A stretch of 64,000 bases of DNA from Opitutus sp. (GCA_024707325.1 JANPZY010000003.1:17361-81360), one strand, 5' to 3'; shown: positions 6,637 through 57,129, counted from the stretch's first letter. Made by a program: numbers and translations. Notes: generated from the letters alone by a model not told the origin.

Positions 6637-7142
6637 TATTCAGATTCCACGGTTAGCTCGATGCGCGGACCCTTGCCGTCGTCCCAGAGCTTGAGCAGTG
6701 AGCCTCGGGCGATGCACGAATCCTGCTCCCAAAGGGCGTCAAGGATGCCTTTGTCCACGTTGTCGCGGTCGGGCTTCGAGCGATGGAGTTTCCCGGCCAT
6801 GGCCGCCTGCTTCTTCTGCGACCATGAGGTCGGCATTGGAAAGTATGCGGTCCATGACACGGATGTTGGTGCCGGGTGGATGCCGGGGCATGCGGCACGG
6901 AGTGCGTCGGCGTAGGCGAAGTATTCGACCACGCACGGACGCTTGGCCCACTTATCGCGTCGAGTCATGCGTGGCTTACCCATCGGTGCGATCTGGATCA
7001 CAAACCGGCCAGTCACCCGCCCCGGTTCCGACGACGGAGCGGGTGCTGGCATGTTAACGGTCCGTGGCAAGCCGCCGGGGACGCCTCGCCCGATCTGAGC
7101 GCGCATCGCTGGCGGAAGATCACTGATGCGAAACCGGGCCAT
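6636..7142 (-). CDS. rusA: RusA-family Holliday junction resolvase
   Basis: Motifs MGKPRMTRRDKW and KPDRDNVDKGILDAL. The ATG at 7142 lies 1 nt after the SSB stop. Confidence 0.7.
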   Translation of the reverse strand: MARFRISDLPPAMRAQIGRGVPGGLPRTVNMPAPAPSSEPGRVTGRFVIQIAPMGKPRMTRRDKWAKRPCVVEYFAYADALRAACPGIHPAPTSVSWTAYFPMPTSWSQKKQAAMAGKLHRSKPDRDNVDKGILDALWEQDSCIARGSLLKLWDDGKGPRIELTVESE

Positions 7143-7143
7143 C

Positions 7144-7556
7144 CTAGAACGGCACGTCTTCGTCGAGGTTGTTGGCGGGGCGCGGAGCCTGCTGGGCGGG
7201 ACGGCTTTGAGCGGGGCGCTCATTGCGCGGCGCAGGTGCGGGAGCGGGCTGCCTGCAGAGACAATCTCGAGCTCGCGAACCGTGAATGTCACTTTGGCCT
7301 TCGGCTCTCCGCCGCGTGACTGATAGATCTCAGCCTTCGCTTCGTTGGCCCAAACCTGAACAATGTCACCCTCGCGCAGTCGCGCCGCCGTTTGCGCGGG
7401 TTCCCCGAAGGAAATGCACTCGTGGTAGGACGAATAGGTCTGGTCGCGAAACTTCCGATCAACCTTGATGGTGAAGCCGGTGAAATCCTTCTGTGTCTTG
7501 GTTTGGCCGACGCGCGGTTCGCGCACGACAGAGCCGAGGAGAATATGGGTTTCCAT
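7144..7556 (-). pseudogene. ssb: Single-stranded DNA-binding protein, frame broken once
   Basis: OB-fold N-terminus METHILLGSVVREPRVGQTK... The canonical acidic tail PANNLDEDVPF-stop (stop 7144-7146) is in another frame. Adding one base to the G3 run at 7246-7248 restores the Pro/Ala/Gln-rich linker plus tail. Confidence 0.85.
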
Positions 7557-7561
7557 GGTAG

Positions 7562-8458
7562 TTACTTGATGATTGTCTCGAGTAGGCGCGGGCTCACGGT
7601 GCAGGTGTGGAGCCCCGTCGGGAGCGTCGGCCATTCGTCGTGTTCAAGAGAGCGCAGGAGGCCATCGATTGCCCTGCGGATGAGGAGTCGGCCCGCACCC
7701 ATGCCGATCTCGTCGGAGGTGAAGAGCGCGCACGCATACGGCGGCTCCTTCTCCACCGGCGCGAAGTAGAACGTGTAGTCGTCAGCGGGCGCACCACAGA
7801 GGCCGATTACGCTGAGATAGAACACGTCTTGGATGAAATATCGGTAGTCCCAATACGCGCGGTTCCAGAGATACCTGAAATCGCCGTGTGAGAGATTCTT
7901 GATCGATTTGAAGTCGAGGACGTAGGGCTTGCGCTGCGTGAAGGCGCAGCCATCGGCGCTGTGGACATCTGTGCGGCACTGGACGGCGAACGGGAGGTTC
8001 TCTGGCTTTGCGCGCCAGGTGATTTCGCACTCGGCGTTCTCGATGAGTTGTCGAATCTCCGGATGGCGAAGGAGGCTCTCGCGCATCTCAAAGACGACGG
8101 TGCGATCGTCCTGTTTGATGAGCGACACGCCCGGATGATCTGCGAGCCACTTGTCGCGCTTTGCGCGATTGGTGGATGATTGCAGTGGGCCGAAATCGGG
8201 CGATACAACGTAGCGCCTGTCGAACTCCTCGACGCCCAGCTCCATCAGCTTGTGAAGCATGTCGCCAACCTCGAGAGCCTTCGTCTCCTCGCGCGGATAC
8301 TCACGAGTGATGTGGCGTCCGCGGAAAAACTGCGGACTCTCGATGAAGTCATCTAGCTTCGACTTCGAGAGCGCCGGGTGCGCGTGGTAGGCGTTGTTGT
8401 CCTCACCTACCACGCGGCCGAATGGGCCTATCTCCTTACTTTGCAGGAGCGGGATCAT
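7562..8458 (-). CDS. PD-(D/E)XK-type exonuclease (RecE/YqaJ-like partner of the annealase)
   Basis: Located between the annealase and SSB. Contains NNAYHAHPALSKSKLDDF and VLDFKSIK, a D-x-K-like motif. Confidence 0.55.
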   Translation of the reverse strand: MIPLLQSKEIGPFGRVVGEDNNAYHAHPALSKSKLDDFIESPQFFRGRHITREYPREETKALEVGDMLHKLMELGVEEFDRRYVVSPDFGPLQSSTNRAKRDKWLADHPGVSLIKQDDRTVVFEMRESLLRHPEIRQLIENAECEITWRAKPENLPFAVQCRTDVHSADGCAFTQRKPYVLDFKSIKNLSHGDFRYLWNRAYWDYRYFIQDVFYLSVIGLCGAPADDYTFYFAPVEKEPPYACALFTSDEIGMGAGRLLIRRAIDGLLRSLEHDEWPTLPTGLHTCTVSPRLLETIIK

Positions 8459-8768
8459 TGATCTCGAGGCCGAGGCGCTTCTTGTCGGTGTCCGTCAGGA
8501 CGAACTTCTTCGCGTCGGGATTGCGCGGCGGGAGCTCGCTGCCGAGATAGGTCTGCGGGGTTCCAGTGGGCGGACTCTTCTCGCTGAACTGTGTGCGATG
8601 ATCGGTGACGACCTTCTCGATCTTGTAGGCGTCGCGATCAACACCGTGCTGGAGCTGGACAATCGCATGAAAGTCCTCGCTCGCACGGGCGAGGTTTGTC
8701 GCGCCGATGACGCTCTTCTGCTCGATGCCATCGTGGCGCGACCAGTGGAAGGTGAAGTTGATTCTCAC
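8436..8768 (-). CDS. Hypothetical phage protein (110 aa)
   Basis: The GTG start overlaps the upstream stop (GTGA). Confidence 0.35.
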   Translation of the reverse strand: MRINFTFHWSRHDGIEQKSVIGATNLARASEDFHAIVQLQHGVDRDAYKIEKVVTDHRTQFSEKSPPTGTPQTYLGSELPPRNPDAKKFVLTDTDKKRLGLEINDPAPAK

Positions 8769-9619
8769 GACTTCACCTCCTTCTTCCCCGCGTCGGCAAG
8801 CGGGTTGGTGCTTTCGTTCGCGACGGCGGTATCCACCGGGAACGCATCGTTGACACTGACCTCACCGTCCTTGATGGCGGTGCGAAGGCCGATGAGAACT
8901 TGGAGCTTCTCGACGCCGACATCATCCCAGCCCTTGACGCCAAGAACTGCGAAGGCGCGAGCCTCCGGCACCTTGATGGACTGGAGCCACTGGGCGGCTT
9001 TCTCGCGGCGCTGTGCCAGCGTGGCGCCCTCGCCCGCTGCAACGCGCTTTGCTTCCTCGATCGCACTCTTCAGGAAGGCGCGAGGGACAACCTTGAACAC
9101 GGCATCGCGATAGGCTTTGGCGTGCGTGGCCTTTTCGATGACGACGCGCATGCGCTCGTCGTAAGGCGTGCCATCCTTCTTTGTCGTGGCCTCGGTGACT
9201 TCGATGGCCGCATAGACGTTCTTTTGGAGGTCGTGGCAGGCGCCCTGAACCTTCACGAAGCGTTCGTTTTTCTCGATGGTGCGCGTGCCGGCGCGGATGT
9301 TGCCGTAGGAGGCGGCGACGATTTCGGCCATGCGGATCGACGGGCCTTCGGCGAACTGTTCCTCCCATTGGCCTTGGTCGTTCTTTTTCTTTCCGACCGG
9401 GCGATAATAAACGCAGCTCTCAGCGGTTTCGGCGTCGAGGGTTACCGCGTCGAGAACGTCCTTCTTAAACGTGGCGAGTGAGCGGGGGAATCGGTGTGCG
9501 GTGCTGATCTGAACATCGACTTCGGCGCGGGTAACGGCGACGAGGGACTCGGATGCGAGAACTTCGAGTTGAGCCGTCTCGGCGGCGGCAGGGCTATCAG
9601 TTGAGTTGAGCGGATTCAT
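8765..9619 (-). CDS. RecT/Red-beta-like single-strand annealing protein (putative)
   Basis: Start MNPLNSTD (ATG 9619) lies after the Xis-like stop. Synteny with the exonuclease and SSB supports the call. ISTAHRFPRSL and GPSIRMAEIVAASYGNIR resemble annealase families from memory only. Confidence 0.45.
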   Translation of the reverse strand: MNPLNSTDSPAAAETAQLEVLASESLVAVTRAEVDVQISTAHRFPRSLATFKKDVLDAVTLDAETAESCVYYRPVGKKKNDQGQWEEQFAEGPSIRMAEIVAASYGNIRAGTRTIEKNERFVKVQGACHDLQKNVYAAIEVTEATTKKDGTPYDERMRVVIEKATHAKAYRDAVFKVVPRAFLKSAIEEAKRVAAGEGATLAQRREKAAQWLQSIKVPEARAFAVLGVKGWDDVGVEKLQVLIGLRTAIKDGEVSVNDAFPVDTAVANESTNPLADAGKKEVKS

Positions 9620-9623
9620 GCTG

Positions 9624-9971
9624 TTATGCGGGCTGAGTTGTGAGCCGGGTGCGGCGGCTCGATTGAGGGAGGTTCTCCCGGAAAGCTGTGAGTTCATCGC
9701 GTCGGCAGATGGGGCGGACGTTGATCTTCCCGCGATGATTGAAGGTCTCGTAACCGCAGATCGGGATCTGCTTCGCGAAACGGCGGCGGAACGTGTCTTC
9801 GCTGACGCCGAGGAACCGCGAGATAGCGAGGGTCCCCTTCACGTATTCCCCATTGGGGGAAGTCGTCAGGTGGCGCCTCACCTCGGCCGCAAGTCCCGGC
9901 GCAAGCAGCGGAACAAGCAGTTCCGCTAGCTCGGCAAGCTGCGATCGACTCTCAAGGTTACTTAAACCCAT
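9624..9971 (-). CDS. HTH DNA-binding protein (excisionase/regulator-like)
   Basis: GTLAISRFLGVSEDTFRRRF is HTH-like. It lies in the int-proximal module. Confidence 0.4.
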   Translation of the reverse strand: MGLSNLESRSQLAELAELLVPLLAPGLAAEVRRHLTTSPNGEYVKGTLAISRFLGVSEDTFRRRFAKQIPICGYETFNHRGKINVRPICRRDELTAFRENLPQSSRRTRLTTQPA

Positions 9972-10056
9972 GACGAAAACGTAGCTTACTTTCGTTATGG
10001 CTTGGTTACTTTAACCTTGGACGAAATAATGAAGCGCAGGTAGGCCGAGGGTGCTC

Positions 10057-24149: not shown

Positions 24150-26243
24150 TTACTGCGGCTTCAATCCGACGAAGTAAGCGGCAAACGCCAGCTTGTCGGC
24201 CGCTTCCTCGATGATCTTGGAAGTCGGCTTTCCTGCGCCGTGACCGGCCTTGGTCTCGATCCGGATAAGCACCGGGCCCGTGTCGGTCCGGCCGCGCGCG
24301 GCCTCCTGCATTGCCGCAGTGTATTTGAACGAATGCGCCGGATGCACGCGGTCATCGTGATCCGCCGTCGTCACCAACACGGCCGGATAGCGCGCGCCGG
24401 TCTTCACTGTGTGCAGGGGCGAATACGCCCGGAGATACTTGAAACCTTCCGGGTCGTCGCTCGAACCGTAGTCCGCCACCCACGCGTGACCGATCGTGAA
24501 TTTGTGGAAACGCAGCATGTCCATCACGCCCACCGCCGGCAGGGCCACGCGTGCGAGCTCGGGACGCTGATTGACGGTCGCACCGACGAGCAAACCGCCG
24601 TTACTGCCGCCCGACAGCACGAGTTTCGCCGACGAGGTGTAGCGGTTCTCGATCAACCACTCCGCCGCCGCGATGAAGTCGTCGAAGACGTTTTGCTTCC
24701 GCTCCTTCGTGCCGGCCTCGTGCCACTCTTTGCCGTATTCGCCGCCGCCGCGGAGATTGGGCACGGCATACACGCCGCCCGCTTCCATCCACACGAGATT
24801 GCCGAGTGAAAACGCCGGCTGCAGCGACACATCGAAACCGCCGTAGCCGTAGAGCAGCGCCGGCGCGGTGCCGTCGAGCGCGAGCCCCTTCTTGTGCGTG
24901 ATAAACATCGGCACGCGCGTGCCGTCCTTCGAGCTGTAGAACACCTGCTTCGTCTCGTAGGCCGCGGGATCGAAATCGACCGTGGGTGCGCGAAACACTT
25001 CCCCCTTCCCGCTCTTCAAATCGTGACGGAAGATCGTCGTGGGATACGTGAACGAGGTGAAGCTGTAGAAAATCTCGGGGTCGTCCGCCCGTCCGGAAAC
25101 GCCTGCGATCTGCCCCAAGCCCGGCAGCGGCACATCGCCCTCGGCCGTGCCGTCGGGACGGTAGACACTGAGGCGGATGGCGACGTCGCGCATCGAGAGC
25201 ACGACGATCTTTCCGCCGATGACGGCCGCCCATTCGATCACGTCCTGACCTTCCGGCACGACGGTCCGCCACTGGTCGCGAGCGGGGTTTCGGGTATCCA
25301 CAGCGATGATACGCTTGCGCGGCGCATCCAGGTTGGTCTGGAGAAACAGCGTCGACCCGAGATTACCGATCACCGAAAACTCCGCCTCCCACTCGTCCAC
25401 GAGGTTCACGAACGGCGCGTCGAGCCGCGGCGCCTTCGGGTCGCCGAGATCGGCGAAGCGGATGAGGTTGTCGTTCGAGTCGCCGCGCGCGAGGTGCACG
25501 ATGAGGAAGCGCCCCTCGTCGGTCACGCCGCCGTAAACAAACCACTTCGGCTGATCCGGCACCTCGGCGATCAACAGGTCCTCCGACTGCGGCGTGCCGA
25601 GTCGGTGATAATAAAGCTTCTGGTGCTCGAGCGCGCTGAAGGTCTTGCCCGTGCCCGCTTCCACCTTCGGCTCCGGAAAGCGCGAGTAAAAGAAGCCCTT
25701 GCTGTCCTTCGTCCACGAGAGCGAGGAGAACTTCACCCACTTCACCACGTCGTCCGTGTCCTGCGCGTCGGCGATGCCGCGCACGCGATACTCGTTCCAA
25801 TCGGAACCTGCCGAAGCCGTGCCGTAGGCCAGCCATTTTCCGTCGTCGGACACCGCCGTCGCGGTCAGCGCGACGGTGCCATCTTCGGAGAGCTGATTCG
25901 GATCGAGCAACACGCGCGGCTCACCGTGCAGCGAGTCCTGCACATAAAGCACCGCCTGATTTTGCAGGCCCTCATTTTTCGAGAAGAAATACTTCCCCGC
26001 CTCCTTCTGCGGCAGACCGAACTTCGGGTAATTCCACAGCTTGGTGAGGCGCTTCTTGAACCATTCGCGCTGCGGCAGCTTTTCCAGAAAACCAAACGTC
26101 AATTGATTCTGCGCGCCCACCCACGCCGCGGTCTCGGCGGAGTCGAGATCCTCGAGCCAGCGGTAAGGATCGGGGACTTTTTGCCCGTGATAGTCATCGA
26201 TTGTGCCGTCTTTTCGCGCAGGGGGATAATTGAAGGTGTTCAT
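24150..26243 (-). CDS. Prolyl oligopeptidase (S9A), copy 2, no signal peptide
   Basis: MNTFNYPPARKDG...DPYRWLEDLDS...GGSNGGLLVG...TADHDDRVHPAHS. 697 aa. Confidence 0.85.
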   Translation of the reverse strand: MNTFNYPPARKDGTIDDYHGQKVPDPYRWLEDLDSAETAAWVGAQNQLTFGFLEKLPQREWFKKRLTKLWNYPKFGLPQKEAGKYFFSKNEGLQNQAVLYVQDSLHGEPRVLLDPNQLSEDGTVALTATAVSDDGKWLAYGTASAGSDWNEYRVRGIADAQDTDDVVKWVKFSSLSWTKDSKGFFYSRFPEPKVEAGTGKTFSALEHQKLYYHRLGTPQSEDLLIAEVPDQPKWFVYGGVTDEGRFLIVHLARGDSNDNLIRFADLGDPKAPRLDAPFVNLVDEWEAEFSVIGNLGSTLFLQTNLDAPRKRIIAVDTRNPARDQWRTVVPEGQDVIEWAAVIGGKIVVLSMRDVAIRLSVYRPDGTAEGDVPLPGLGQIAGVSGRADDPEIFYSFTSFTYPTTIFRHDLKSGKGEVFRAPTVDFDPAAYETKQVFYSSKDGTRVPMFITHKKGLALDGTAPALLYGYGGFDVSLQPAFSLGNLVWMEAGGVYAVPNLRGGGEYGKEWHEAGTKERKQNVFDDFIAAAEWLIENRYTSSAKLVLSGGSNGGLLVGATVNQRPELARVALPAVGVMDMLRFHKFTIGHAWVADYGSSDDPEGFKYLRAYSPLHTVKTGARYPAVLVTTADHDDRVHPAHSFKYTAAMQEAARGRTDTGPVLIRIETKAGHGAGKPTSKIIEEAADKLAFAAYFVGLKPQ

Positions 26244-28433
<2,190 letters not shown>

Positions 28434-28508
28434 TCGCCCAGCGTGCGGGCCGCCGCGTTCGTCGCAACTTCCGTTTGCACCACGCCGTTCCCAACGCCTC
28501 AATACCTC

Positions 28509-29168
28509 ATGCGTTTTCTTCGCCCCTTCCTCTCGCTCGTCGTTGTCGCCCTCCTCGCCTCGCCCCTCGCCGCGGCGCCCGACTACTGGAAAAAAGACAT
28601 CCAGAAATTCCTCGCCGCCGACGCCGCCAATCCGCCGCCGCAGGACGCCGTGCTCTTCATCGGCAGCTCGTCGATCCGCATGTGGAAGACGCTCGCCAAA
28701 GACTTTCCGCAGGTGAAAACCATCAACCGCGGATTCGGCGGCTCCGAACTTGCCGACAGCGTTTACTACGCCGACCAGATCGCGATTCCCTATCGTCCGC
28801 GCACGGTCGTCCTCTACGCCGGCGACAACGATGTCGCGAACAACAAGTCCCCCGAGCAGATCGCGGCCGACTTCGTGGCGTTTCGCGAAAAGATTCACGC
28901 TGCGCTCCCGCAGACGCGCATCATCTATCTCGCCGTGAAACTCAGCCCGTCGCGCATGCAATTCCGCGACGCCGCGCTGCGAACGAACGAGCTGATCGCC
29001 GCCGATTGCGCGCAGCATCCGCTCTGCACGTTCGTCGATATCGTTACGCCCATGCTCGACGACGCCGGCCAGCCGCGTCCCGAACTTTTCCTCTCCGACA
29101 TGCTCCATCTCAGCGACGCCGGCTACGCGATCTGGACGCGCGCGCTCGCTCCTCACCTTCAACCATGA
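28509..29168 (+). CDS. SGNH/GDSL-type hydrolase with signal peptide
   Basis: Conserved blocks FIGSSSIRMW, GFGGS, YAGDNDV and SDMLHLS. Confidence 0.75.
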   Translation: MRFLRPFLSLVVVALLASPLAAAPDYWKKDIQKFLAADAANPPPQDAVLFIGSSSIRMWKTLAKDFPQVKTINRGFGGSELADSVYYADQIAIPYRPRTVVLYAGDNDVANNKSPEQIAADFVAFREKIHAALPQTRIIYLAVKLSPSRMQFRDAALRTNELIAADCAQHPLCTFVDIVTPMLDDAGQPRPELFLSDMLHLSDAGYAIWTRALAPHLQP

Positions 29169-29785: not shown

Positions 29786-29894
29786 CGTAACGAGGCACGA
29801 CCCGGTCCGCACCTTGTCGCGACCATGTGCGCACCGTGGCTCGACCGTGTGCGGACTTTGGCTCGACTCGGTCCGCACTCGGTCCCGACCCGGT
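29786..29894. repeat. 22-bp tandem repeat array, locus A (about 4.5 units)
   Basis: Units at 29805-29826, 29827-29848, 29849-29870 and 29871-29892, for example GTGCGCACCGTGGCTCGACCGT. The array fills the whole gap between two convergent stop codons. Confidence 0.85.
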
Positions 29895-31163
29895 TCAGCT
29901 TAAGTCCCGAATCGAGCCGAACTCGGGATCGAACAGGCGCCGATAGGTCCGCACGATCATGCCATCCGTGAGTCCGGCGAGCCAGTCACAGATCTGCCGC
30001 GCTTTTCCCGCGTTTGTTTTTTCCGCCTCGATCAGTTTGCCGATCCGCGGGGGCAGGATGTTGATCACCCGCGATCCGCGCTCGACGTAGTTTCTCCACG
30101 CCGAATCCCACAGTTCGAAGAGCACCCGCCGCGCCTTGTGCTCCATCTGCTGAAGCTGCGGGCTTTCAAAGATGATGTCGTTGGCGATCTTTTTGAAGAA
30201 CTGCGCCTCGTCCTCGACCCCGCCAGAAATCACGAGCTCGTAGCGGTAGCGATTGGTGCGCTCCGCCATGAAATTGCTGCGCTCGCGCAGTCGGCAGGTG
30301 GAGATGAAGCGACCGACTTTTTGCGCGAACACGCTCTCCAACCGGTCGCCGCGGATCGCGTCGAAAAGCGTATCCAAAAGTTTCTGACGCGGCGGATCGA
30401 TCGCCTCGCCCGCCGCCCAGCGCTCGATGCGCTCGATGGTGAGAAACCCGGCCGTCACGCCGTCCACGATATCGTTGAGCGAATAGGCGACGTCGTCCGC
30501 CCAATCCATGATCTGACACTCGATGCTTTTGAAGGCGTTGAGCTTGTCGCCTTCGTGCAACGCTGCGGGGATCTCCGCGCCGCCGAACACGAAACTGCGC
30601 TCCGCCGTCTGCGGATCGTAGAGAAAGTGATTTTTCGGCGGCGTCGGAAACTCCGAGAACAGTTTTTTGTATTTAAGCACACCATCGAGCAGCGCGCGCG
30701 TCGGCTGCATGCCGCGCACGGAAGTTTCGTTTTGAAAAATCGTTTCCGTGAGCAGATGCAGCGTCTGCGCGTTGCCCTCGAAACCGCCCCACCCGATCAT
30801 CAATTCCTGCAACGTGCGCTCACCCGAGTGACCGAACGGCGGATGGCCGAGGTCGTGCGAAAGACACGCCGCCTCGACCAGATCGCTGTCGATGTAGAAA
30901 TCCTCCGTGAGCGGTCCGCCGCGTGTGCGCAGATAATGACAGATCGAGCGACCGATCTGCGCGACCTCCATCGAGTGCGTCAGTCGCGTGCGATAGAAAT
31001 CGTATTCGCCGGACAGAAACACCTGCGTCTTCGACTGCAGTTTCCGAAACGCGTGAGCGTGGATGATCCGGTCGCGATCCACTTGAAACGGGCTGCGGTA
31101 GTCGGGTTTCCGGCCTCCGCCATAACACTCGAAGTCGAACTCGCGATAAAACCGATTTCCCAT
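29895..31163 (-). CDS. dgt: dGTPase-like triphosphohydrolase (HD superfamily)
   Basis: FQVDRDRIIHAHAFRKLQSKTQV...THSMEVAQIGR...SHDLGHPPFGHSGE. Confidence 0.85.
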   Translation of the reverse strand: MGNRFYREFDFECYGGGRKPDYRSPFQVDRDRIIHAHAFRKLQSKTQVFLSGEYDFYRTRLTHSMEVAQIGRSICHYLRTRGGPLTEDFYIDSDLVEAACLSHDLGHPPFGHSGERTLQELMIGWGGFEGNAQTLHLLTETIFQNETSVRGMQPTRALLDGVLKYKKLFSEFPTPPKNHFLYDPQTAERSFVFGGAEIPAALHEGDKLNAFKSIECQIMDWADDVAYSLNDIVDGVTAGFLTIERIERWAAGEAIDPPRQKLLDTLFDAIRGDRLESVFAQKVGRFISTCRLRERSNFMAERTNRYRYELVISGGVEDEAQFFKKIANDIIFESPQLQQMEHKARRVLFELWDSAWRNYVERGSRVINILPPRIGKLIEAEKTNAGKARQICDWLAGLTDGMIVRTYRRLFDPEFGSIRDLS

Positions 31164-36465: not shown

Positions 36466-36480
36466 GCCAGTCGTGCTCTC

Positions 36481-36516
36481 GCTCGTGCTCGACGCGAGAG
36501 AGTTTCGAGCACGAGC
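36481..36516 (+). other. Perfect 12-bp stem-loop after cdd (no U tract)
   Basis: GCTCGTGCTCGA (36481-36492) pairs with TCGAGCACGAGC (36505-36516) around a 12-nt loop. Confidence 0.6.
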
Positions 36517-36527
36517 ACGGGGGCTTC

Positions 36528-36747
36528 AGTGCGCACACGTCGCGGCGCAGCCCGCACCTTATGCCGACCATGCGCGGACTTCCGTTCAACGATGTCCGCA
36601 CCTCGTCGAGACCGTGTCCGGACATCGCCGCGACCATGTTCGGATCTCATCGAGACCGTGTTCGCACCTTGGCGCGACCCGGTGCGGACTTCGGCCCGAC
36701 GTGGGACGCACTGAGTTCCGACTCGGTGCGCTCACGGGAGCGACTCG
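36528..36747. repeat. 22-bp tandem repeat array, locus B (10 units)
   Basis: Strict 22-nt phasing from 36528, for example GTTCGCACCTTGGCGCGACCCG at 36660-36681. The last unit overlaps the stop and last codons of the hydrolase gene. Confidence 0.85.
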
Positions 36748-37523
36748 GCGAAGGCGTGTAGTTCGCGCCAGTAGGTTTCGCCGGCTTGTTCGATGACGTC
36801 GTTGTGTCGGGCAGACTCCACCCAGAGCGCGCGACGGTCGCCGCGCACGGCCGCGTGGAGTTTCTCTCCATGCCAGAACGGGATAATCTCATCGCGCCGG
36901 CCGTGAATCACGAACACCGGAGACGCGATCTCGGGCATCTTTGCGAGATTGCGAAAGCGGTCGCCGGGAAAAATCGGCCAACGCGTCATCACGCGATACG
37001 CGCTCACGAAACCACTCTCGATCACCAGTCCGGCGAAGCGTGCGCGGCGCGCCATCTCGACGGCGGGTCCGCCGCCGATGGAGCGGCCGTAAAGCAGTAT
37101 CCTGTTTACGGATACTCCTTGTTCGGCGAGATGGCGTTGTCCGGCTTCCGCCGCGGCGATCACAGAGCGTTCGCTGGGTCGTCCCTCGCTCGTGCCGTAG
37201 CCGGGATAATCGATTGCGAACACGGCGAAACCGCGCCGCTGATACTCCGCGAGCCGCGGAGCGATGTCGCCCAGGTCTTCGCCATTGCCGTGAAAATACC
37301 AGAGCGTGAAGCGCGCTTCCGGATTTGGCAGATGCAGCGCGGACACCGTGGAGCCATCCGCAAGGCGTAGACGAAACGCACCCGGCGGCGCGGTGCCCGA
37401 GGCGAAACGTGCGGGAAACATGATCCCGTCGGCGGCGAGCCACGCGAGCCCGCACGCCACGAGATACAGCAACACGAGCCAGCCGATCATGCGGAGCCAG
37501 TAGCGTTTCGCGCTCGGTCGCAT
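36732..37523 (-). CDS. Alpha/beta hydrolase with N-terminal TM anchor
   Basis: GRSIGG nucleophile elbow and a hydrophobic N-terminus. Confidence 0.75.
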   Translation of the reverse strand: MRPSAKRYWLRMIGWLVLLYLVACGLAWLAADGIMFPARFASGTAPPGAFRLRLADGSTVSALHLPNPEARFTLWYFHGNGEDLGDIAPRLAEYQRRGFAVFAIDYPGYGTSEGRPSERSVIAAAEAGQRHLAEQGVSVNRILLYGRSIGGGPAVEMARRARFAGLVIESGFVSAYRVMTRWPIFPGDRFRNLAKMPEIASPVFVIHGRRDEIIPFWHGEKLHAAVRGDRRALWVESARHNDVIEQAGETYWRELHAFAESLP

Positions 37524-49237: not shown

Positions 49238-52084
49238 ATGAGCTGGCAAATCGAGTTCCGACACGGCGTGTGGCTGCCCCAAATCGGCTGGTGGCTCGAC
49301 GCACATTTTCCGGTCAAACGCTCGTTCGTCTCGCACGCGCACTTCGACCACGTCGCGGAGCACGAGGAGATCATCGCGTCCGCCGGCACCGCGCGGCTCA
49401 TGCGGGCCCGTCTGCCCGCGCGCCGCACGGAACACGTCCTGCCTTTTGGCCACACCGAGGCGCTCACAACCAACTGCGCGATCACGCTGCATCCAGCGGG
49501 GCACATCTACGGCTCCGCCCAGGCCCTGCTCGAACACGAGCTCCACGGTTCGCTGCTCTACACGGGCGACTTCAAACTGCGCCCCGGCCTCTCCGCCGAA
49601 CCATGCGCCACGCCGCACGCCGACACGCTCATTATGGAGACGACGTTTGGCCGACCGCACTACGTTTTCCCGCCAACCGCCGAAGTGCTCCGTGCAATCG
49701 CGCATTTTTGTGCGGAAACGATTTCCAACGGCGAGACGCCGGTCCTCTTCGGCTACAGCCTCGGCAAGAGTCAGGAACTCCTCAGCGGTCTCGCCGACGC
49801 GCGTCTGCCCGTGATGCTGCATCCACAAACCTGCCGGCTCACCCGCATCTACGAGGAGATGGGACTCACGTTTCCAGACTACCGCGAGTTTTCCGCCGAT
49901 GAACTCGCGGGGCACGTCGTCATCTGCCCACCGCAGGCGCGCGATTCGTCGTTTCTCCGCAAGATCCCGCAGCGTCGCACCGCGATGATCACCGGTTGGG
50001 CGATGGATCCGGGCGCGATCTATCGCTATCAGTGCGACGCAGCCTTTCCTCTCTCCGATCACGCGGACTTTCCCGACTTGATCCGCTTCGTGGAGCGGGT
50101 CGCGCCGCAACGCGTCCTGACCCTGCACGGATTCTCGCGCGAGTTTGCGCAGACGCTGCGCGACCGCGGCATCGAGGCGTGGGCGATCAATCAGGACAAC
50201 CAACTCGAACTCGGGATTCTCAAACCCTCGATCCGCGCTCCCGGTCCGCTCGCCGCCGAGGAAGCGGCACCCGTCGACGCTCCGCTCTCACCCGATTCGT
50301 TCACGCGCTTCGTTGCCACCGCCGACGCGGTCAAAGCCACGCCCGCGAAACTCGAAAAAATCGCGCTGCTTCGCGATTATCTCGCTTCGCTTTCCGCTGA
50401 CGACGCCGCGCGCGCCGCCGTGTTTCTCACGGGGCGGCCGTTCCCGCAAAGCGATGCGCGCACGCTCACGCTCGGCTGGGCGGTGGTGAAGCGCGCCGTG
50501 CTCGAACTCGCGCCCGGCAGCGAGGCGGACTACCGCGACGCGTATCATCGGTTCGCCGACGCAGGCGACGCGACTGGCGCCGTGCTCGCGGGAAAAACCC
50601 AGCCGCGTCCGTGCGCTCTTTCCGAAATCGCGCAGTTCTTCGACGCCGTCGCCGCCGCACGCGGCCCCGCGCCGAAACTCGATCTGTTGCGCAATCGTTT
50701 CTCCGCGCTCGGTCGCAACGAGATTCGCTACCTCGTGAAAATTATCACAGGCGATCTCCGCATCGGCCTCAAAATGGGACTGCTCGAGGAAGCCATCGCC
50801 GCCGCCACCGAACGCACACTCGAAGAGATTCGCGAGGCCAACATGCTGTGCGGCGATATCGCCGCGGTCGTTCGCTCCGCGCGCGCGGGCGAACTGCACA
50901 CGATTCAGCTCCGCGTCTTCCATCCGCTCCAGTTCATGCTCGCGAGCCCGGAGCCGACGGCTGATGCGATCGTCGCGCGCTTCACCGAACTCGCCGCCCC
51001 CTCTCCACCGTGCACCTCAGCTCCTGAATCAAAGTCCGTAATACGGACTTTAGACCATTCTCCCCTCTCAAATTCAAAGTCCGTATTACGGACTTTGCCG
51101 GAAGGGGCGGTGGCGTCGCCGACCATCTGGCTCGAGGAGAAATACGACGGCGTCCGCTGCCAGCTCCACAAAGCGGGCGCTCGCGTGGAGCTCTACTCGC
51201 GCGATCTCCATCGTATCACAGAAACATTTCCCGAACTTGTCACCGCCGCGCGCGAGCTTCCGGGCGACGCGATCATCGACGGCGAATTGCTCGCGTGGCG
51301 CGATGGCCGCGCCCTGCCGTTTGCCGAGCTGCAAAAGCGCCTCGGTCGCAAAGGCGGTGATGACTTCTTTCTCGGTTCCGAGATTCCCGTGTCGCTCTCC
51401 TGCTACGACCTGCTCTGGCGCGATGGTCGCACTCTGCTCAAGGAGCCGCTCGCCACGCGTCGCGACGAACTCGTCGCGCTGCTCCACTCGTTGCCCGAAA
51501 CGCTCGCCGCACGTTTTCCGATCGCGCCGGTGCAACTCGTCCACACTGCCGACGAGATCGAAGCCGCCTTTCTCGCCGCCCGCCAGCGCGGCAACGAAGG
51601 CCTGATGGCAAAAGATCCGCAGAGCGCCTACACGCCCGGACGCCGCGGTCTCGCCTGGCTGAAACTCAAGAAAGCCTACGCCACGCTCGACGTCGTTGTG
51701 GTCGGCGCCGAATACGGCCACGGCAAGCGTCACGCCGTGCTCAGCGACTACACGTTCGCGATCCGTGACGAGGAAAACGGCAATCGCCTGCTCACGGTCG
51801 GCAAAGCCTACTCCGGGCTCACCGACGCCGAGATCGTCCAGCTCACGCAGCATTTTCTCGATCACACGCTTGAGGTGCACGGTCGTTACCGCCGCGTCGT
51901 GCCCGATACGGTGCTCGAGATCGCCTTCGACTCGATCCAGCCGAGCGATCGCCACGAGAGCGGTTTCGCCCTGCGTTTTCCGCGCATCGCGCGTATCCGT
52001 TCGGACAAGACAGCGGCGGAGATCGATACGTTGGAAACGTGTCGTCGCCTCGCCGCGCCGCCGAGCTTCGCTCCGGCCCGGTAA
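49238..52084 (+). CDS. Ligase-associated DNA damage response exonuclease (MBL fold) fused to ATP-dependent DNA ligase
   Basis: The N-terminus has the MBL motif SHAHFDHV. The ligase part has EEKYDGVRCQ (motif I), GLMAKD and WLKLKK. It is a single 948-aa ORF with no internal Met or stop at the domain junction. Confidence 0.85.
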   Translation: MSWQIEFRHGVWLPQIGWWLDAHFPVKRSFVSHAHFDHVAEHEEIIASAGTARLMRARLPARRTEHVLPFGHTEALTTNCAITLHPAGHIYGSAQALLEHELHGSLLYTGDFKLRPGLSAEPCATPHADTLIMETTFGRPHYVFPPTAEVLRAIAHFCAETISNGETPVLFGYSLGKSQELLSGLADARLPVMLHPQTCRLTRIYEEMGLTFPDYREFSADELAGHVVICPPQARDSSFLRKIPQRRTAMITGWAMDPGAIYRYQCDAAFPLSDHADFPDLIRFVERVAPQRVLTLHGFSREFAQTLRDRGIEAWAINQDNQLELGILKPSIRAPGPLAAEEAAPVDAPLSPDSFTRFVATADAVKATPAKLEKIALLRDYLASLSADDAARAAVFLTGRPFPQSDARTLTLGWAVVKRAVLELAPGSEADYRDAYHRFADAGDATGAVLAGKTQPRPCALSEIAQFFDAVAAARGPAPKLDLLRNRFSALGRNEIRYLVKIITGDLRIGLKMGLLEEAIAAATERTLEEIREANMLCGDIAAVVRSARAGELHTIQLRVFHPLQFMLASPEPTADAIVARFTELAAPSPPCTSAPESKSVIRTLDHSPLSNSKSVLRTLPEGAVASPTIWLEEKYDGVRCQLHKAGARVELYSRDLHRITETFPELVTAARELPGDAIIDGELLAWRDGRALPFAELQKRLGRKGGDDFFLGSEIPVSLSCYDLLWRDGRTLLKEPLATRRDELVALLHSLPETLAARFPIAPVQLVHTADEIEAAFLAARQRGNEGLMAKDPQSAYTPGRRGLAWLKLKKAYATLDVVVVGAEYGHGKRHAVLSDYTFAIRDEENGNRLLTVGKAYSGLTDAEIVQLTQHFLDHTLEVHGRYRRVVPDTVLEIAFDSIQPSDRHESGFALRFPRIARIRSDKTAAEIDTLETCRRLAAPPSFAPAR
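50997..51100. repeat. Low-GC twin-palindrome element inside the ligase ORF
   Basis: AAAGTCCGTA-A-TACGGACTTT (51031-51051) and AAAGTCCGTA-T-TACGGACTTT (51076-51096) lie 45 nt apart. Each is preceded by CCCCTCTC...AAT(T)C. Confidence 0.8.
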
Positions 52085-52096
52085 AGCTCCCTGAAA

Positions 52097-54652
52097 ATGC
52101 TCCGTCCCGTCTCGAGCGCCGCCGCCTCCGAAACCGATCTCTTCGCCGCGCTCACGCCCGACCTCGCCGCGTGGTTTCGCCGACGTTTCGGTCACTTCGC
52201 GCCCGCGCAGCTTCAGGCGATTCCCGAAATTCTCTCGGGCCGCTCCGTCCTCGTTTCCTCGCCGACCGGCAGCGGCAAAACGCTCGCCGCGTTTCTCGGC
52301 ATTTTCGATCACCTCGCGCGCCTGAAAAACGCCGACGAGCTCCCGCCCGGCATCGTCGCGGTTTACGTTTCCCCACTGCGCGCGCTGGCCTACGATCTGC
52401 AGAAAAATCTCCAGCAACCGCTCGCCGAACTCGGTTGGGACTGGATTTGTGTTGGCGTGCGCTCGGGTGACACGACCCAGGCCGAACGCGCCAAACAGCG
52501 TCGCAAGCCGCCCCACCTGCTCGTCACCACACCCGAAAGTCTGACGCTCCTGCTCAGCCAGCCGGGCTGGCTCTCCGCCTTTCGCGATACGCGATTTCTG
52601 ATCGCCGACGAACTTCACGCGCTCGCGGAGAACAAACGCGGCTCGATGCTCATGATCGCCGCCGAGCGACTCGAGGAAATCGCCCGCACTCCCCTCGTCC
52701 GCATCGGCCTTTCAGCGACGGTGTCACCGCTCTCCACGCTCGCGGAGTTTCTCGTCGGTCCCGGTCGCGAATGCCGGACCATCGAAATCGTCGAGCGAAA
52801 GCCGGCCCACATCGAGGTGTTCTCACCGCTCCGCGCCAACGCGTATCCACCGGCCGGTTACACCGCCACGCGCGTGTTGCGCGAGTTGGGCGACTTGCTG
52901 CTCCGCCACGAGACCACGCTCATCTTCACCAACACCCGTAGCGGCGCCGAATCGATTGGCCTGCGACTCAAGCAACTTCTGCCCAGGCTCGAATCGCAGA
53001 TCGAGGTGCACCACGCCTCGCTCGATCGCAGCGTGCGACTGGAAATCGAGGATCGTCTGAAGCGCGGTGAACTCCGCGCCGTGGTCTGCTCCACGTCGCT
53101 CGAGATGGGCATCGACATCGGTTCGATCGATCTCGTCGTGATGGTCTCCGCGCCCAAAGGCGTCGCGCGCGCGCTTCAGCGCATCGGCCGGTCCGGTCAT
53201 TCGATGGGTCGCACAAGTCACGGCGTGCTCGTCGCGAGCAACATCAACGACCTCGCCGAGTGCGCCGTCACTGCGCTCATGATGACGCGACGCGAACTCG
53301 AGCCGGTGAAGATCCCCGAGAATCCGCGTGACGTGCTCGCGCAGACGCTCGTCGGCCTCGCCGTCTTCGAAAGCGTCACGCCGGACGAAGCGCTCGCGCT
53401 GCTCCACCGCAGCTATCCGTTCCGGCATCTCGACCGTGCCACGTTTGACCGCGTGCTGCACTATCTCCACGGCGGCGGCGCCTCGCTCGAGCGCAACTAC
53501 ACCGAAACCTTTGGGAAAATCCGCATCGACGAACACGGACACCTCGCCCTCACCCGACCACGCGTCGCGCGCGATTTCTACCAGAACATCGGCACGATCA
53601 ACACCGAGAGCATGGTGCGCGTGATCTTGAAGCGACGCGCCATCGGCCAGGTGGAGGAGAACTTCATGAAGAGTCTCCGGACCGGCGACGTTTTCGTGCT
53701 CAACGGCCGCTGCGTGCGACTCGTCAAAAGCCATCTCCTCACCGCCCACGTCGCACCCGCGGACAACCAACTCCCCACCGTGCCGCGCTGGTATGCGAAC
53801 AAGATGCCACTTGCGTCCGGCCTCGCCGCCGAAGTCGTGCGCCTGCGGACGGAACTCGCGCGCCGGCTCACCCATCCCGCCGAGAGCGAGGACGCCGCCG
53901 TGCAGTATCTGATTTCCGAATACGATCTATCGCGCGCCAATGCCCACGCGCTCGTGCAACACTTCGCGCTGCAGGCGCAGATTTCCGTGATTCCCACCGC
54001 GGAGAAATTTCTCATCGAGGTCTTCCGCGAAGGCGATCTCGTGCACTACTTCTTCCACGCCCTGATCGGCCGCTCGGCCAACGACGCGCTGTCGCGCATC
54101 GTCGCGCAGCGCGTGCAGGAAACCAAAGGCGGCAACGCGCTCGCGACGATCGACGACTACGGTTTCCTCCTGAGCCTGCGTTCGTTTCAGGTGATGACGC
54201 GGGAGGAACTCGCGCACTTGTTTCGCCGCGAAGGAGCCGAGGACGCGCTGCGCGCCGCGCTCGCGGATGCATCGCTCGTGAAATGGCAGTTTCGCGGCGT
54301 CGCGCAGACCGGCCTCATGGTGCCGCGACGCACACACGGCGTGGAGCGCGGCGCGCGCATGCTGCAGTGGAGCGCCGAGATCATCTTCGAAGTGCTGCGC
54401 CAGCACGAACCCGACCACCCGTTGCTGGCCGAGGCCTACGCGGAGGCGACCCAGCGTTTTCTCGATCTGCCGCGCGCGCTCCAGTTTTTGGATACGGTCC
54501 CGAATCTCGCGTGGGACTTGCGCGAGCTGAAAAAAGTGAGCCCGTTCTCGTTCGGCATCTACGTGAGCAAGATCAAGGAAACCATGACCCTCGAAGACCC
54601 CGAAACGACGATCGAGCGCCTCTTCCATCAAATGTATGGCTCCCCCGCGTGA
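52097..54652 (+). CDS. lhr: Ligase-associated DEXH-box helicase (Lhr-like)
   Basis: SSPTGSGKTLAAF, DELH and the C-terminal Lhr domains. 851 aa. Confidence 0.9.
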   Translation: MLRPVSSAAASETDLFAALTPDLAAWFRRRFGHFAPAQLQAIPEILSGRSVLVSSPTGSGKTLAAFLGIFDHLARLKNADELPPGIVAVYVSPLRALAYDLQKNLQQPLAELGWDWICVGVRSGDTTQAERAKQRRKPPHLLVTTPESLTLLLSQPGWLSAFRDTRFLIADELHALAENKRGSMLMIAAERLEEIARTPLVRIGLSATVSPLSTLAEFLVGPGRECRTIEIVERKPAHIEVFSPLRANAYPPAGYTATRVLRELGDLLLRHETTLIFTNTRSGAESIGLRLKQLLPRLESQIEVHHASLDRSVRLEIEDRLKRGELRAVVCSTSLEMGIDIGSIDLVVMVSAPKGVARALQRIGRSGHSMGRTSHGVLVASNINDLAECAVTALMMTRRELEPVKIPENPRDVLAQTLVGLAVFESVTPDEALALLHRSYPFRHLDRATFDRVLHYLHGGGASLERNYTETFGKIRIDEHGHLALTRPRVARDFYQNIGTINTESMVRVILKRRAIGQVEENFMKSLRTGDVFVLNGRCVRLVKSHLLTAHVAPADNQLPTVPRWYANKMPLASGLAAEVVRLRTELARRLTHPAESEDAAVQYLISEYDLSRANAHALVQHFALQAQISVIPTAEKFLIEVFREGDLVHYFFHALIGRSANDALSRIVAQRVQETKGGNALATIDDYGFLLSLRSFQVMTREELAHLFRREGAEDALRAALADASLVKWQFRGVAQTGLMVPRRTHGVERGARMLQWSAEIIFEVLRQHEPDHPLLAEAYAEATQRFLDLPRALQFLDTVPNLAWDLRELKKVSPFSFGIYVSKIKETMTLEDPETTIERLFHQMYGSPA

Positions 54653-54660
54653 ACCACAAC

Positions 54661-54677
54661 GTCAACTAATAGTTGAC
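54661..54677. other. Perfect 17-bp AT-rich palindrome
   Basis: GTCAACTA-A-TAGTTGAC, 9 nt after the lhr stop. Confidence 0.6.
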
Positions 54678-54711
54678 ATGTCCTCCGGCGCACTTTTCGG
54701 GCTCAGGGGAG

Positions 54712-55092
54712 TTGCGGCGGACGACGGGCTTGGTTGTCGCGGCAACATGGACCCAAAGGAAATGGGGGCGAACGCGGCCCGTGTTGCATTGCTCGCGCGG
54801 CACCTTGGCGCGATCCGGTCTGCACCCAAGCCGCGCCTGGGCTCGACATGGGACGCACTGGGTCCCGACATGGTGCGTGCTCTGGCGTGACGTGGAGCGA
54901 ACGTTAGCTCGACCCACGCCGCACCTTGGCTCGACCTGGTGCGCACCTTGGCTCGACGTGGTGCGCACCTTGGCTCGACTTGGGACGGACCTTGGCGCGA
55001 CTCGGGACACATCGTGTCCCGAGTCGGTGCGGACTTTGTCCCGACTCAATGCAGACATTGTCCCGACACGGGACGCCCCTGGGAGCGAGTCA
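54712..55092. repeat. 22-bp tandem repeat array, locus C (about 13 clear units from 54796, more degenerate upstream)
   Basis: Near-identical core copies at 54917-54938, 54939-54960 and 54961-54982 (GTGCGCACCTTGGCTCGACGTG). Flanking units are progressively degenerate. The last unit contains the A of the pdeM ATG. Confidence 0.85.
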
Positions 55093-55742
55093 TGAGCGTG
55101 CGGGTTGAATTTGCGCCGGGCGCATGGATCGATTCGAGGCTGGCGGTGTGGCTCGAGAAGTTACGCACGCTGGTCGTGGCGGATTTGCACTGGGGCTACT
55201 CGGCATCGCATCGCGCGCGCGGAAATCTGGTGCCCGTCTGGGGCGACGACGTGATCGAGCAGCGATTGCGCGCGTTGATCGCCGACTATGCCCCCGAGGA
55301 AATGATCTGGCTCGGTGATTGTTTGCACGCGGCGGAAGGGCGCGCGGGCGCAGAGCGGTTTTTGCAGGAAACGAATGTGCCGGTGGTGGTGGTGCGCGGA
55401 AATCACGACGTGCGCTGGCGCTTCGACGCGTGCGTGGAAGCGGTCACGCGCGGGCCGTTCTTTTTTCATCATGGTGACGCGTCCGTCGAGGTGCCGGAAG
55501 ACGCGATCGAGGTGATCGGACATTTGCACCCGGCAATCGTCTGGCGCGATGGCGCGGGCACGCGGCTGAAGTTGCCCGCATTGGTGGCGAGCGCGCGGCG
55601 ATGGGTGCTGCCGGCGTTCTCGCCGTGGGCGGCGGGCGCAGCGTGGCGGGCGTCGGGCGGGGAAACTTTGCACGCGATCAGCGCGAAACGCATCTTTGCG
55701 GTTGCGCCGGTGTCGCATGGAGTCGACACATCCACCCGGTGA
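55092..55742 (+). CDS. pdeM: Ligase-associated metallophosphoesterase PdeM
   Basis: VVADLHWGY, WLGDCLH, VRGNHD and GHLHP metallophosphoesterase motifs. Confidence 0.8.
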   Translation: MSVRVEFAPGAWIDSRLAVWLEKLRTLVVADLHWGYSASHRARGNLVPVWGDDVIEQRLRALIADYAPEEMIWLGDCLHAAEGRAGAERFLQETNVPVVVVRGNHDVRWRFDACVEAVTRGPFFFHHGDASVEVPEDAIEVIGHLHPAIVWRDGAGTRLKLPALVASARRWVLPAFSPWAAGAAWRASGGETLHAISAKRIFAVAPVSHGVDTSTR

Positions 55743-56572: not shown

Positions 56573-57129
56573 AGCTTGCGCGCAGGTTTGCCCGCAGCGG
56601 CGCGCCGATCCCACACGAAGCGCCACGGTTTCGCGGCCCAGATTTCCCCGGCGTAATCCACGCCGATGCGCGGCGTGGTGCGGACTTCGACGCGACGCGG
56701 TTTCACGCCTTCGTCCTCTATCCACAATCCGGATACAGGCTCGGCTGGCGCGGCGTTGAGCGTGCGATCGATCGCAAGGTTCTTGGTCACGCGACCAGGC
56801 CCGCTGAGTCCCTCGACACCACGAATCAAAATCGCCGCGGGACAATCGGGCGGACCGACCACGAGATTGAGCATCTCGTGAATGCCATAGCAGAGGTAAA
56901 CATACCAAACGCCGCCCGGCCCATACATGACCTCGGTGCGACGCGTGCGACCGGCGCGCGCGTGGCAGGCGAGATCGTGTTCGCCGTCGTAGGCCTCGAC
57001 CTCGGTGATCGCGCGAGACTCGATGCGACCGTCAGGCCAGCGGCGAACGAGATGCTTTCCCAACAGGCTGCGGGCGAGAACGAGCGTGCGGCGCGATTGC
57101 CAAACTTTCGCTTCGATTACGCTGCCCAT
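56569..57129 (-). CDS. mpg: DNA-3-methyladenine glycosylase (Mpg/AAG family)
   Basis: LLGKHLVRR...ITEVEAYDGEHDLACHA...GGVWYVYLCYGIHEMLN. Confidence 0.85.
   Translation of the reverse strand: MGSVIEAKVWQSRRTLVLARSLLGKHLVRRWPDGRIESRAITEVEAYDGEHDLACHARAGRTRRTEVMYGPGGVWYVYLCYGIHEMLNLVVGPPDCPAAILIRGVEGLSGPGRVTKNLAIDRTLNAAPAEPVSGLWIEDEGVKPRRVEVRTTPRIGVDYAGEIWAAKPWRFVWDRRAAAGKPARKL

Follow-up and report, generated by a model that had tools for sequence, protein, structure and literature searches.

Repetitive extragenic palindromic (REP) sequences typically number more than 100 copies per genome, and in the GTAG families the cognate REP-associated tyrosine transposase (RAYT) gene is flanked by the repeats. 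Mycobacterial interspersed repetitive units (MIRUs), which are variable-number tandem repeats (VNTRs) of Mycobacterium, have units of 46-101 bp that are not palindromic and carry short open reading frames (ORFs) for translational coupling. Iterons are phased direct repeats of 17-22 bp that lie beside a rep gene or an origin, at one place per replicon. Among these systems, REPs lie chiefly between convergent and unidirectional ORFs and comprise the GTAG and CGTC super-families (Di Nocera et al. 2013, PMC3733652). They occur mostly as singletons or as inverted head-to-head or tail-to-tail dimers with variable spacers, and head-to-tail dimers are reportedly absent or rare (PMC3733652). Opitutus terrae has a strong excess of GTAG-tagged REPs, of types GTAG-17 to GTAG-20, some of which lie in frame within the ligase gene Oter_3148 (PMC3733652). 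In the yjdMN operon of E. coli, REP325 serves as a partial Rho-dependent terminator and as a stabiliser of the upstream mRNA (bioRxiv 10.64898/2026.03.23.713779). Here, we describe a family of 22-nt tandem repeats in a stretch of 64,000 nucleotides from Opitutus sp. (GCA_024707325.1, JANPZY010000003.1:17361-81360; hereafter the window, whose first letter is position 1), one array of which lies between lhr and pdeM of a ligase-associated DNA damage response (LADDR) operon. The best reading of the family is a lineage-specific, REP-like palindromic minisatellite of an Opitutus clade, located in gaps downstream of genes.

The 22-nt family and its unit

The original prediction had proposed a dispersed family lying in one orientation at the 3' ends of genes, and the three loci of the window, which hold about 28 units in 64 kb, agree with it:

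29798-29907, + strand: array A, with five units that occupy the convergent gap between the stops of the HD_3 (YfbR-like) gene (29785) and the dGTPase-like gene (29895)
36543-36762, + strand: array B, with nine to ten units, where the cytidine deaminase (stop 36465) and alpha/beta-hydrolase (stop 36732) genes converge
54790-55091, + strand: array C, in the lhr-pdeM gap, which amounts to about 13.7 units of 22 nt and includes decayed units and a phase break at 54790-54843

Tandem Repeats Finder returned a period of 22 at 29794-29867 and 36593-36700 as well as within array C (54920-55001, 3.7 copies, 90% matches, score 122; also 55015-55067), where a 66-nt super-period was additionally found across 54832-55001 (score 163). 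A position matrix of the unit gave in-phase chains at these three loci only, and 50 shuffled windows yielded no such chain; a two-unit skeleton pattern matched twice in the window versus no match in 100 dinucleotide shuffles, and a repeat-finding run independently linked the three loci as families D1, D2 and D6. No isolated unit of at least 18 bits was found outside the arrays in the 64 kb, versus 14 inside them, and singletons or inverted dimers were likewise absent. Weak matches within the ligase gene (50074-50139 and its orthologues) and a glycosylase gene (56668-56700) were rejected as chance because protein alignments show conserved coding sequence without insertion.

Beyond the window, 11 more arrays were found in related metagenome contigs. 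The metagenome scan used three CGACNNGG heads at 22-nt spacing and mostly returned unrelated tandem repeats; seven loci with nine true family arrays were retained (L012, L063, L077, L079, L114, L122 and L127), of which L079 is assigned to an Opitutus sp. metagenome-assembled genome. Two arrays each lie within 12-17 kb in L007, L012 and L077. Scans of 37 kb of O. terrae and of L009 and L131 did not find the family. The skeleton pattern, which is specific and catches only about a third of arrays, had no match in 2.9 million viral contigs, and the exact 19-mer GTGCGCACCTTGGCTCGAC, a word too specific for the purpose, gave four chance matches in unrelated taxa over 185,579 representative genomes. 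Rfam returned nothing at gathering thresholds for the whole window and noise only at E up to 10 for the locus, and the literature searched, on LADDR, on tandem repeats of 22 bp and on repeats of Opitutus or Opitutaceae, gave nothing on this family. The family is real and, from these searches, apparently undescribed.

We compiled 95 units from 14 independent arrays, with 81 adjacent-unit pairs among them. Their consensus reads CGACCCGGT(C/G)CGCACCTTGGCG, and the centre of the consensus unit is GGTGCGCACC. Eleven positions (1-4, 8, 11, 12, 14, 15, 19 and 21) form a skeleton, CGAC...G..CG.AC...G.C, which is 85-95% conserved in each array, and the other positions are highly variable. The CGAC head is present in 86-89 of the 95 units, and neither strand carries GTAG or CGTC at the unit end. 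The unit has partial dyad symmetry (G2/C21, C4/G19, G8/C15, T9/A14 and C11/G12), and the position matrix scores both strands at the same coordinates because the unit partly equals its own reverse complement. Under three stem models (the inter-unit 10-bp stem of the original prediction, an intra-unit hairpin and a junction-centred hairpin), 64-71% of cells were paired in register versus 17-49% after sliding the partners by 1-3 columns. The palindrome test within the family gave 64% in register versus 26-49% slid, which supports a short imperfect palindrome and, with it, the palindromic core proposed at the outset. The symmetry is incomplete, since C1 and A3 are mostly unpartnered and positions 5-6 versus 17-18 set pyrimidine opposite pyrimidine; therefore, the arrays possess polarity. 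Perfect palindromes (GTGCGCAC and GTCCGGAC) are under-used, and restriction-site avoidance was rejected as the cause, as TGCGCA and TCCGGA show no depletion elsewhere in the window. A rut-like C-rich RNA was also rejected, the GC skew of the arrays being merely -0.06, and the strand test of G·U versus A·C gave 83 versus 60, an excess too slight to decide on a strand.

The arrays hold 4-14 units and exist solely in the head-to-tail, phase-locked form. Units abut in 14 of 14 arrays, with none of the unique spacers of clustered regularly interspaced short palindromic repeats (CRISPR), and the 22-nt phase is strict throughout; the roughly 100 unit steps include a single break, in the decayed 5' part of array C. 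Array starts are often ...GCGCCGCACCTTGGCG, and the first and last units are similar at unrelated loci. The same terminal unit, CGACCCGGTTCAG, closes two unrelated convergent gaps (window 29886-29907 and L077 7922-7943), and the TCA at its positions 10-12 is the stop codon of the opposite-strand gene in both; the last unit of array A supplies the stop codon of the dGTPase-like gene. This sharing may point to an element with a defined 3' end, or to preferred insertion at stop codons.

Of 13 independent arrays, eight are flanked by convergent genes and five by co-directional genes, and no array occupies a divergent gap. In the co-directional gaps, the CGAC-first strand is the sense strand in five of five cases (one-sided p = 0.03). 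Typically, an array extends from a stop codon to the opposite stop or start codon, and the last bases of a gene are often supplied by the array. Gene calls at the metagenome loci were made with heuristics based on third-codon-position GC content and some Pfam checks, the contexts of L122 and the second array of L077 (L077b) being the least certain.

Other recurrent, dispersed 22-nt tandem families were met in the same scan, whose pattern was itself built on the CGACNNGG head. A dispersed family, CGACGGGGTCAGAGTGTCCTCT, occurs in high-GC contigs (L024, L039, L043, L058, L075, L098, L104 and L125), another, CGACGCGGATGTCTGCATCGAC, in human-gut contigs (L015, L041, L042, L060, L093, L101 and L116), and a third, CGACTCGGGCGCACGGAAGGCT, with a faint resemblance to the family studied here, in contigs of 70% GC (L052 and L068). 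A wider super-family of CGAC-headed palindromic 22-mers was considered and rejected because these other repeats are no more palindromic than their shuffles (mean best stem 3.80 versus 3.76).

Array C in the lhr-pdeM gap

The anatomy of the locus, in which the flanking gene identities (lhr, pdeM, LADDR operon) first assigned from the DNA were borne out by Pfam and NCBIfam, is as follows:

49238-52084, upstream of lhr: exonuclease-ligase fusion gene (Pfam, NCBIfam)
52097-54652, + strand: lhr, ligase-associated DEXH helicase (Lhr-type), upstream flank of array C (Pfam, NCBIfam)
54653-54789, + strand: 5' part of the inserted lhr-pdeM spacer, out of the 22-nt register, with an AT-rich palindrome and faint unit relics
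54910-54975, + strand: three near-identical units CGACnnnnnnCGCACCTTGGCT, of which the relative L005 (97% identical) has one fewer
54998-55026, no strand assigned: perfect 13-bp inverted repeat CGACTCGGGACAC-ATC-GTGTCCCGAGTCG, centre of a longer predicted hairpin
55081-55085, + strand: GGGAG, putative pdeM Shine-Dalgarno sequence within the last full unit, 6 nt 5' of the pdeM ATG and the same in L005
55092-55742, + strand: pdeM, ligase-associated phosphoesterase, downstream flank of array C (Pfam, NCBIfam)

For all three flanking proteins, the best full-length NCBIfam match is a "ligase-associated DNA damage response" model. The spacer between the lhr stop (54652) and the pdeM ATG (55092) is 439 nt. 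A head-to-tail 22-nt array in this gap, as first proposed, is real by both Tandem Repeats Finder and the strict register at 54844-55091, in which 11 units (54844-55085) are followed by the start of a twelfth, CGAGTC, abutting the pdeM ATG. The span of 54712-55092 given in the original prediction stands from 54790 onward; its start was too generous because 54712-54789 holds faint relics only. The three near-identical central copies reappear at 54910-54975 in our register, and in the earlier register the last unit does end on the A of the pdeM ATG. That the array is non-coding, has no spacers and follows a period that is not a codon multiple was also supported. The pdeM Shine-Dalgarno sequence is probably contributed by the last full unit. 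No sigma-70-like promoter or canonical terminator was found on either strand in 54400-55300, and the GC-rich hairpin followed by a U-tract that marks an intrinsic terminator is lacking there, the units having no T run.

We then compared the locus with its relatives, in which the identity of the Lhr homologues to that of the window is 97% (L005) and 88% for metagenome proteins, 81% for L009, 76% for L131 and 75% for O. terrae. The window is placed in Opitutaceae by these homologues, the closest of which are the metagenome proteins. An array sits at the same lhr-pdeM position in L005, L006, L007 and L008. As these are four independent assemblies, array C is not an assembly artefact. The L005 array has one unit fewer than that of the window, and the arrays of L006 and L007, whose Lhr proteins are identical to each other and 88% identical to that of the window, differ by exactly one unit. 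Arrays thus gain and lose whole units, as replication slippage or unequal exchange would predict, and show the unit-number polymorphism between strains at intergenic head-to-tail arrays that defines VNTRs. In L009, L131 and O. terrae, lhr and pdeM abut or overlap without a spacer; array C is therefore a lineage-specific insertion into an ancestrally tightly coupled operon. The possibility that orthologous gaps would expose the units as decayed coding sequence is answered by the same comparison, as these relatives have no sequence there. A second locus behaves alike: the convergent gap between pheT and a response-regulator gene is 162 nt long and full of units in L079, versus 16 nt without an array in its 85%-identical relative L132. 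New 3' gaps have acquired arrays in certain lineages only.

In the 88% relatives, the lhr stop is lost (L006 9583-12282, L007 3825-6524 and L008 3994-6693), adding 48 codons that run into the spacer, and Lhr is 899 aa long versus 851 aa. Opitutaceae Lhr homologues span 841 to 991 aa, a spread which suggests frequent repeat-derived extensions or insertions. The perfect inverted repeat at 54998-55026 is imperfect in L005, with three clustered left-arm positions differing, and all three differences raise complementarity in the window; we infer a single templated quasipalindrome-correction event. Nine nucleotides past the lhr stop, in a genome of 62% GC, lies a perfect AT-rich palindrome, GTCAACTA-A-TAGTTGAC (54661-54677), which is single-copy in the window and otherwise conserved solely at the orthologous position in L005-L008; a G/T change in L006 would retain a G·U pair. 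This palindrome could be a small hairpin or an operator brought in with the insertion.

Elsewhere in the window, an inverted repeat, CTCGTGCTCGA...TCGAGCACGAG (36473-36518), lies directly past the cytidine deaminase stop, ahead of array B, and its hairpin is unrelated to the 22-nt family. At 24150-29162 (- strand), a single ORF of 1670 aa contains two complete prolyl-oligopeptidase copies (Pfam Peptidase_S9_N and Peptidase_S9, two each), with direct repeats of 72-80% identity at a spacing of 2148 nt, the product of a tandem gene duplication that is either truly fused or just read as one ORF. Exact look-ups of the window PdeM and Lhr sequences found neither on record.

Constraint, function and competing explanations

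Between the window and L005, 18 of 22 substitutions in the array fall at the 11 variable positions (p = 0.004), and the only indel in the array is one whole unit, versus a 9-nt and a 1-nt indel in the 137-nt non-repeat part of the spacer. Essentially no small indel was seen over the 81 unit steps. Against L006, 39% of 4-fold sites differ, yet the skeleton is 91% kept in both arrays. Units are 59-64% similar within an array versus 61% between loci or genomes; with no excess similarity inside single arrays, the shared skeleton is not a by-product of recent local amplification. The skeleton and the 22-nt phase are under selection, which could come from a function in the host, from an enzyme that mobilises the units or from a protein that binds them.

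Our working model, to which we assign a probability of about 0.5, is that the arrays are transcribed hairpin chains which would act as a decay barrier and as a partial terminator or insulator; it builds on their position, their polarity, the predicted fold of the spacer and the analogy with E. coli REP325. An array would be transcribed with the upstream gene, as a 3' untranslated region or as intercistronic RNA, and this RNA would fold into a GC-rich chain of hairpins, in several registers because each unit approximates its own reverse complement. Like the REP clusters of E. coli, for which this has been shown, the hairpins would block 3'-to-5' exonucleolytic decay of the upstream message and would partly stop or attenuate read-through, here in a manner independent of a U-tract; between convergent genes, they would work in both directions. 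At array C, the insertion has separated the once abutting stop and start codons of lhr and pdeM, between which some 440 nt of structured RNA would now lie; the last unit would provide the pdeM ribosome-binding site. With an insertion between the two genes, the expression of pdeM and the downstream gene relative to ligase and lhr has probably changed, and the ratio would be likely lower and dependent on unit number.

The model of the original prediction has stems between units, in a structured RNA or in a cruciform of the DNA, that compensatory substitutions would maintain. Complementary or near-complementary neighbours do occur, such as GTGCGGAC then GTCCGCAC in array A and GGACGCAC then GTGCGTGC in array C. 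However, the 81 adjacent-unit pairs from 14 arrays show no covariation under any of the three stem models, in which the paired cells (64-71%) are at or under the shuffled means and the covariation scores lie below those of 440-489 of 500 shuffles. Mutual information over all column pairs ranks adjacent columns at the top, with local variant words at positions 9-10, e.g., TC, TG and GA, and leaves the stem partners unranked. Core positions 10 and 13, the sole symmetric pair with signal, co-vary against complementarity (34 C/C, 12 G/G, 13 G-C and 5 C-G; Fisher p = 0.003). GTCCGCAC and GTGCGGAC are reverse complements by construction, being the two single-site variants of the palindrome GTGCGCAC; units of the former type outnumber those of the latter about 3:1, so most of them are partnerless, and some arrays, e.g., the second of L007, hold one type only. 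The T that makes GTGCGTGC near-complementary is a C in L005. In folding tests, the arrays surpassed dinucleotide shuffles (mean z -1.6 to -2.1 over 14 arrays; array C -5.7; whole spacer -4.4) and did no better than sequences drawn from the column frequencies of the family (mean z -0.26). Array C does exceed its within-array column shuffles (z = -3.4), which would favour kept stems, but this extra stability is due to its three freshly duplicated units and its perfect 13-bp inverted repeat (54998-55026), the latter imperfect in the 97% relative. We consider compensated stems very unlikely. A decayed coding remnant, a cryptic small gene or an assembly artefact hardly deserves any credence. Long ORFs do run through array C on both strands, and the lhr frame of L006-L008 continues into the spacer; against this, the period is not a multiple of three, the ORF translations have no Pfam match, and indels of 1, 9 and 22 nt between the window and L005 break all frames. 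The orthologous loci, with no sequence at the position, refute a coding origin, and an artefact would have to recur in four independent assemblies.

The skeleton and the strict phase bear on three further explanations. The arrays may be a selfish or tolerated repeat without host function which survives in promoter-free 3' gaps, where it is least harmful, with the skeleton serving a putative RAYT-like HUH/Y1 mobilising enzyme that would act on single-stranded hairpins and read CGAC as the equivalent of the GTAG guide. That they are lineage-specific insertions, diverge overall at a near-neutral rate, grow until they touch or overlap both stop codons and end alike at unrelated loci (starts ...GCGCCGCACCTTGGCG; end CGACCCGGTTCAG in array A and L077) fits this explanation. 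The conserved mismatches at 5-6 and 17-18 are of a kind typical for hairpins that IS200/IS605-type enzymes recognise; O. terrae, moreover, encodes a RAYT and is rich in REPs (PMC3733652). No RAYT was found by tblastn with the O. terrae protein in the window or in 133 loci, which are fragments of genomes, and neither a RAYT nor another mobility gene was found adjoining the arrays. The singletons and inverted dimers that RAYTs usually produce are absent from the window, the REPs published for O. terrae (GTAG-17 to GTAG-20) differ in sequence, and mobilisation does not predict the sense orientation in five of five operon gaps, so we hold the selfish repeat to be possible but on balance doubtful. 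A platform for a putative double-stranded DNA-binding protein would account for other features. E. coli bacterial interspersed mosaic elements (BIMEs) bind gyrase and IHF, and supercoils build up between convergent genes, where the arrays are enriched; a 22-bp unit is two helical turns with its CGAC and CGnAC blocks about 10-12 bp apart, so the sites would lie on one face of the helix and allow a nucleoid-associated protein or topoisomerase to bind cooperatively where transcription units end. The skeleton kept without stem covariation, the strict phase with almost no small indels and the equal similarity of units within and between arrays, which suggests a shared sequence constraint over local homogenisation, are consistent with such binding. 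The motif, however, is only partly symmetric and has no known candidate protein, the 5/5 orientation bias in co-directional gaps is unexpected for a symmetric site, and strict phase is also explicable by growth through whole-unit slippage; a DNA platform therefore seems improbable. Sense-strand polarity in operons, together with the skeleton without stem covariation and the near absence of small indels, is accommodated by a phase-locked recognition module, in which the 11-position skeleton would be read by a putative dedicated trans-acting factor and the family would form a new, RAYT-independent class of tandem palindromic elements, headed by CGAC, in an Opitutus clade. Strain-variable unit number may then set termination, insulation or topology at transcription-unit ends. 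We offer this module as a speculative and rather unlikely proposal.

Several observations weigh against the hairpin-chain model itself. No stem is supported by the covariation expected of a structured RNA; four arrays (L006, L063, L077a and L122) fold no better than shuffles, and none beats the samples from the family profile. The conserved C11 and G12 would sit in a loop or at the dyad centre, and, with the pyrimidine-pyrimidine positions 5-6/17-18, they look like sequence recognition rather than stem stability; independent RNA hairpins, besides, have no need of phase-locking. Array divergence from L005 (8.1% of sites) matches that of 4-fold sites in the flanking genes (7-10%), so selection is at most position-specific. 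A U-tract terminator and a promoter-like site are both absent from 54400-55300, the gene calls at metagenome loci are heuristic with two contexts (L122 and L077b) less certain, and the RNA-level function is drawn only from position, orientation and analogy.

If the hairpin-chain model is true, Opitutus-like bacteria adjust the ratios of operon genes and insulate convergent genes with a repeat that varies by whole units, and the arrays would be a cheap and quickly evolving expression dial, in this case one inserted into a DNA-damage operon whose tight coupling is kept in relatives. The arrays also disturb gene calling, as where the lhr frame of L006-L008 runs into the spacer, and they are usable as VNTR strain-typing markers for Opitutaceae in metagenomes. 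They further provide a test case for whether REP-like elements are kept for structure or for a sequence recognised by protein, and for how tagless families spread.

Comparison with known repeat systems

Iterons, like the 22-nt arrays, repeat directly at about 22 bp in phase with the DNA helix, and their units combine a conserved recognition skeleton with variable positions; in contrast, the arrays lie at many loci, at the 3' ends of ordinary chromosomal genes, with no initiator gene or origin. The likeness to MIRUs rests in head-to-tail units, in many intergenic or operon loci touching stop and start codons and in strain-variable unit number, whereas the dyad-symmetric unit of 22 nt is far from MIRU size, is not a multiple of three and has no conserved ORF. 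REP325, the source of our working model, is likewise a repeat cluster between two genes of an operon; it differs in consisting of canonical REPs alternating in orientation and in having a function shown by experiment, whereas that of the 22-nt family is proposed by analogy.

The GTAG-17 to GTAG-20 REPs of O. terrae come from the same bacterial family and the same operon and, like array C, are palindromic repeats on DNA-repair genes. They differ in sequence, occur as single units or inverted dimers, are often intragenic and are absent from the window; identity with them was rejected, as GTAG-17 (GTAGCCGGGGTCgccGACCCCGG) is unrelated. The ligase copies were read in L130 as GTAG-CCGGGGTC-gcc-GACCCCGG. 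The in-frame GTAG-17 insertions in Oter_3148 are at L130 8364-8390 and 8835-8885, and the L009 ligase (6636-10004, 1122 aa) has extra segments, versus none in the window ligase (948 aa). The LADDR-type operon seems to have served repeatedly as a landing site for palindromic repeats of different kinds.

Compared with REPs and BIMEs in general, the family differs in its head, which is CGAC and not GTAG (or GYAG, GTRG, GTGG) nor CGTC, in its solely head-to-tail arrangement with zero spacer and fixed phase in place of singletons and inverted dimers, in the very short, loopless stem of the unit (GGTGC/GCACC) and in having no known RAYT link. It shares with them a short, GC-rich, imperfect palindrome with a conserved tetranucleotide at one end, and an extragenic location mainly in convergent and co-directional gaps (8 and 5, with 0 divergent). 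Also shared is a dispersed, lineage-specific and sometimes clustered or tandem distribution that reaches into operons and overlaps the ends of genes.

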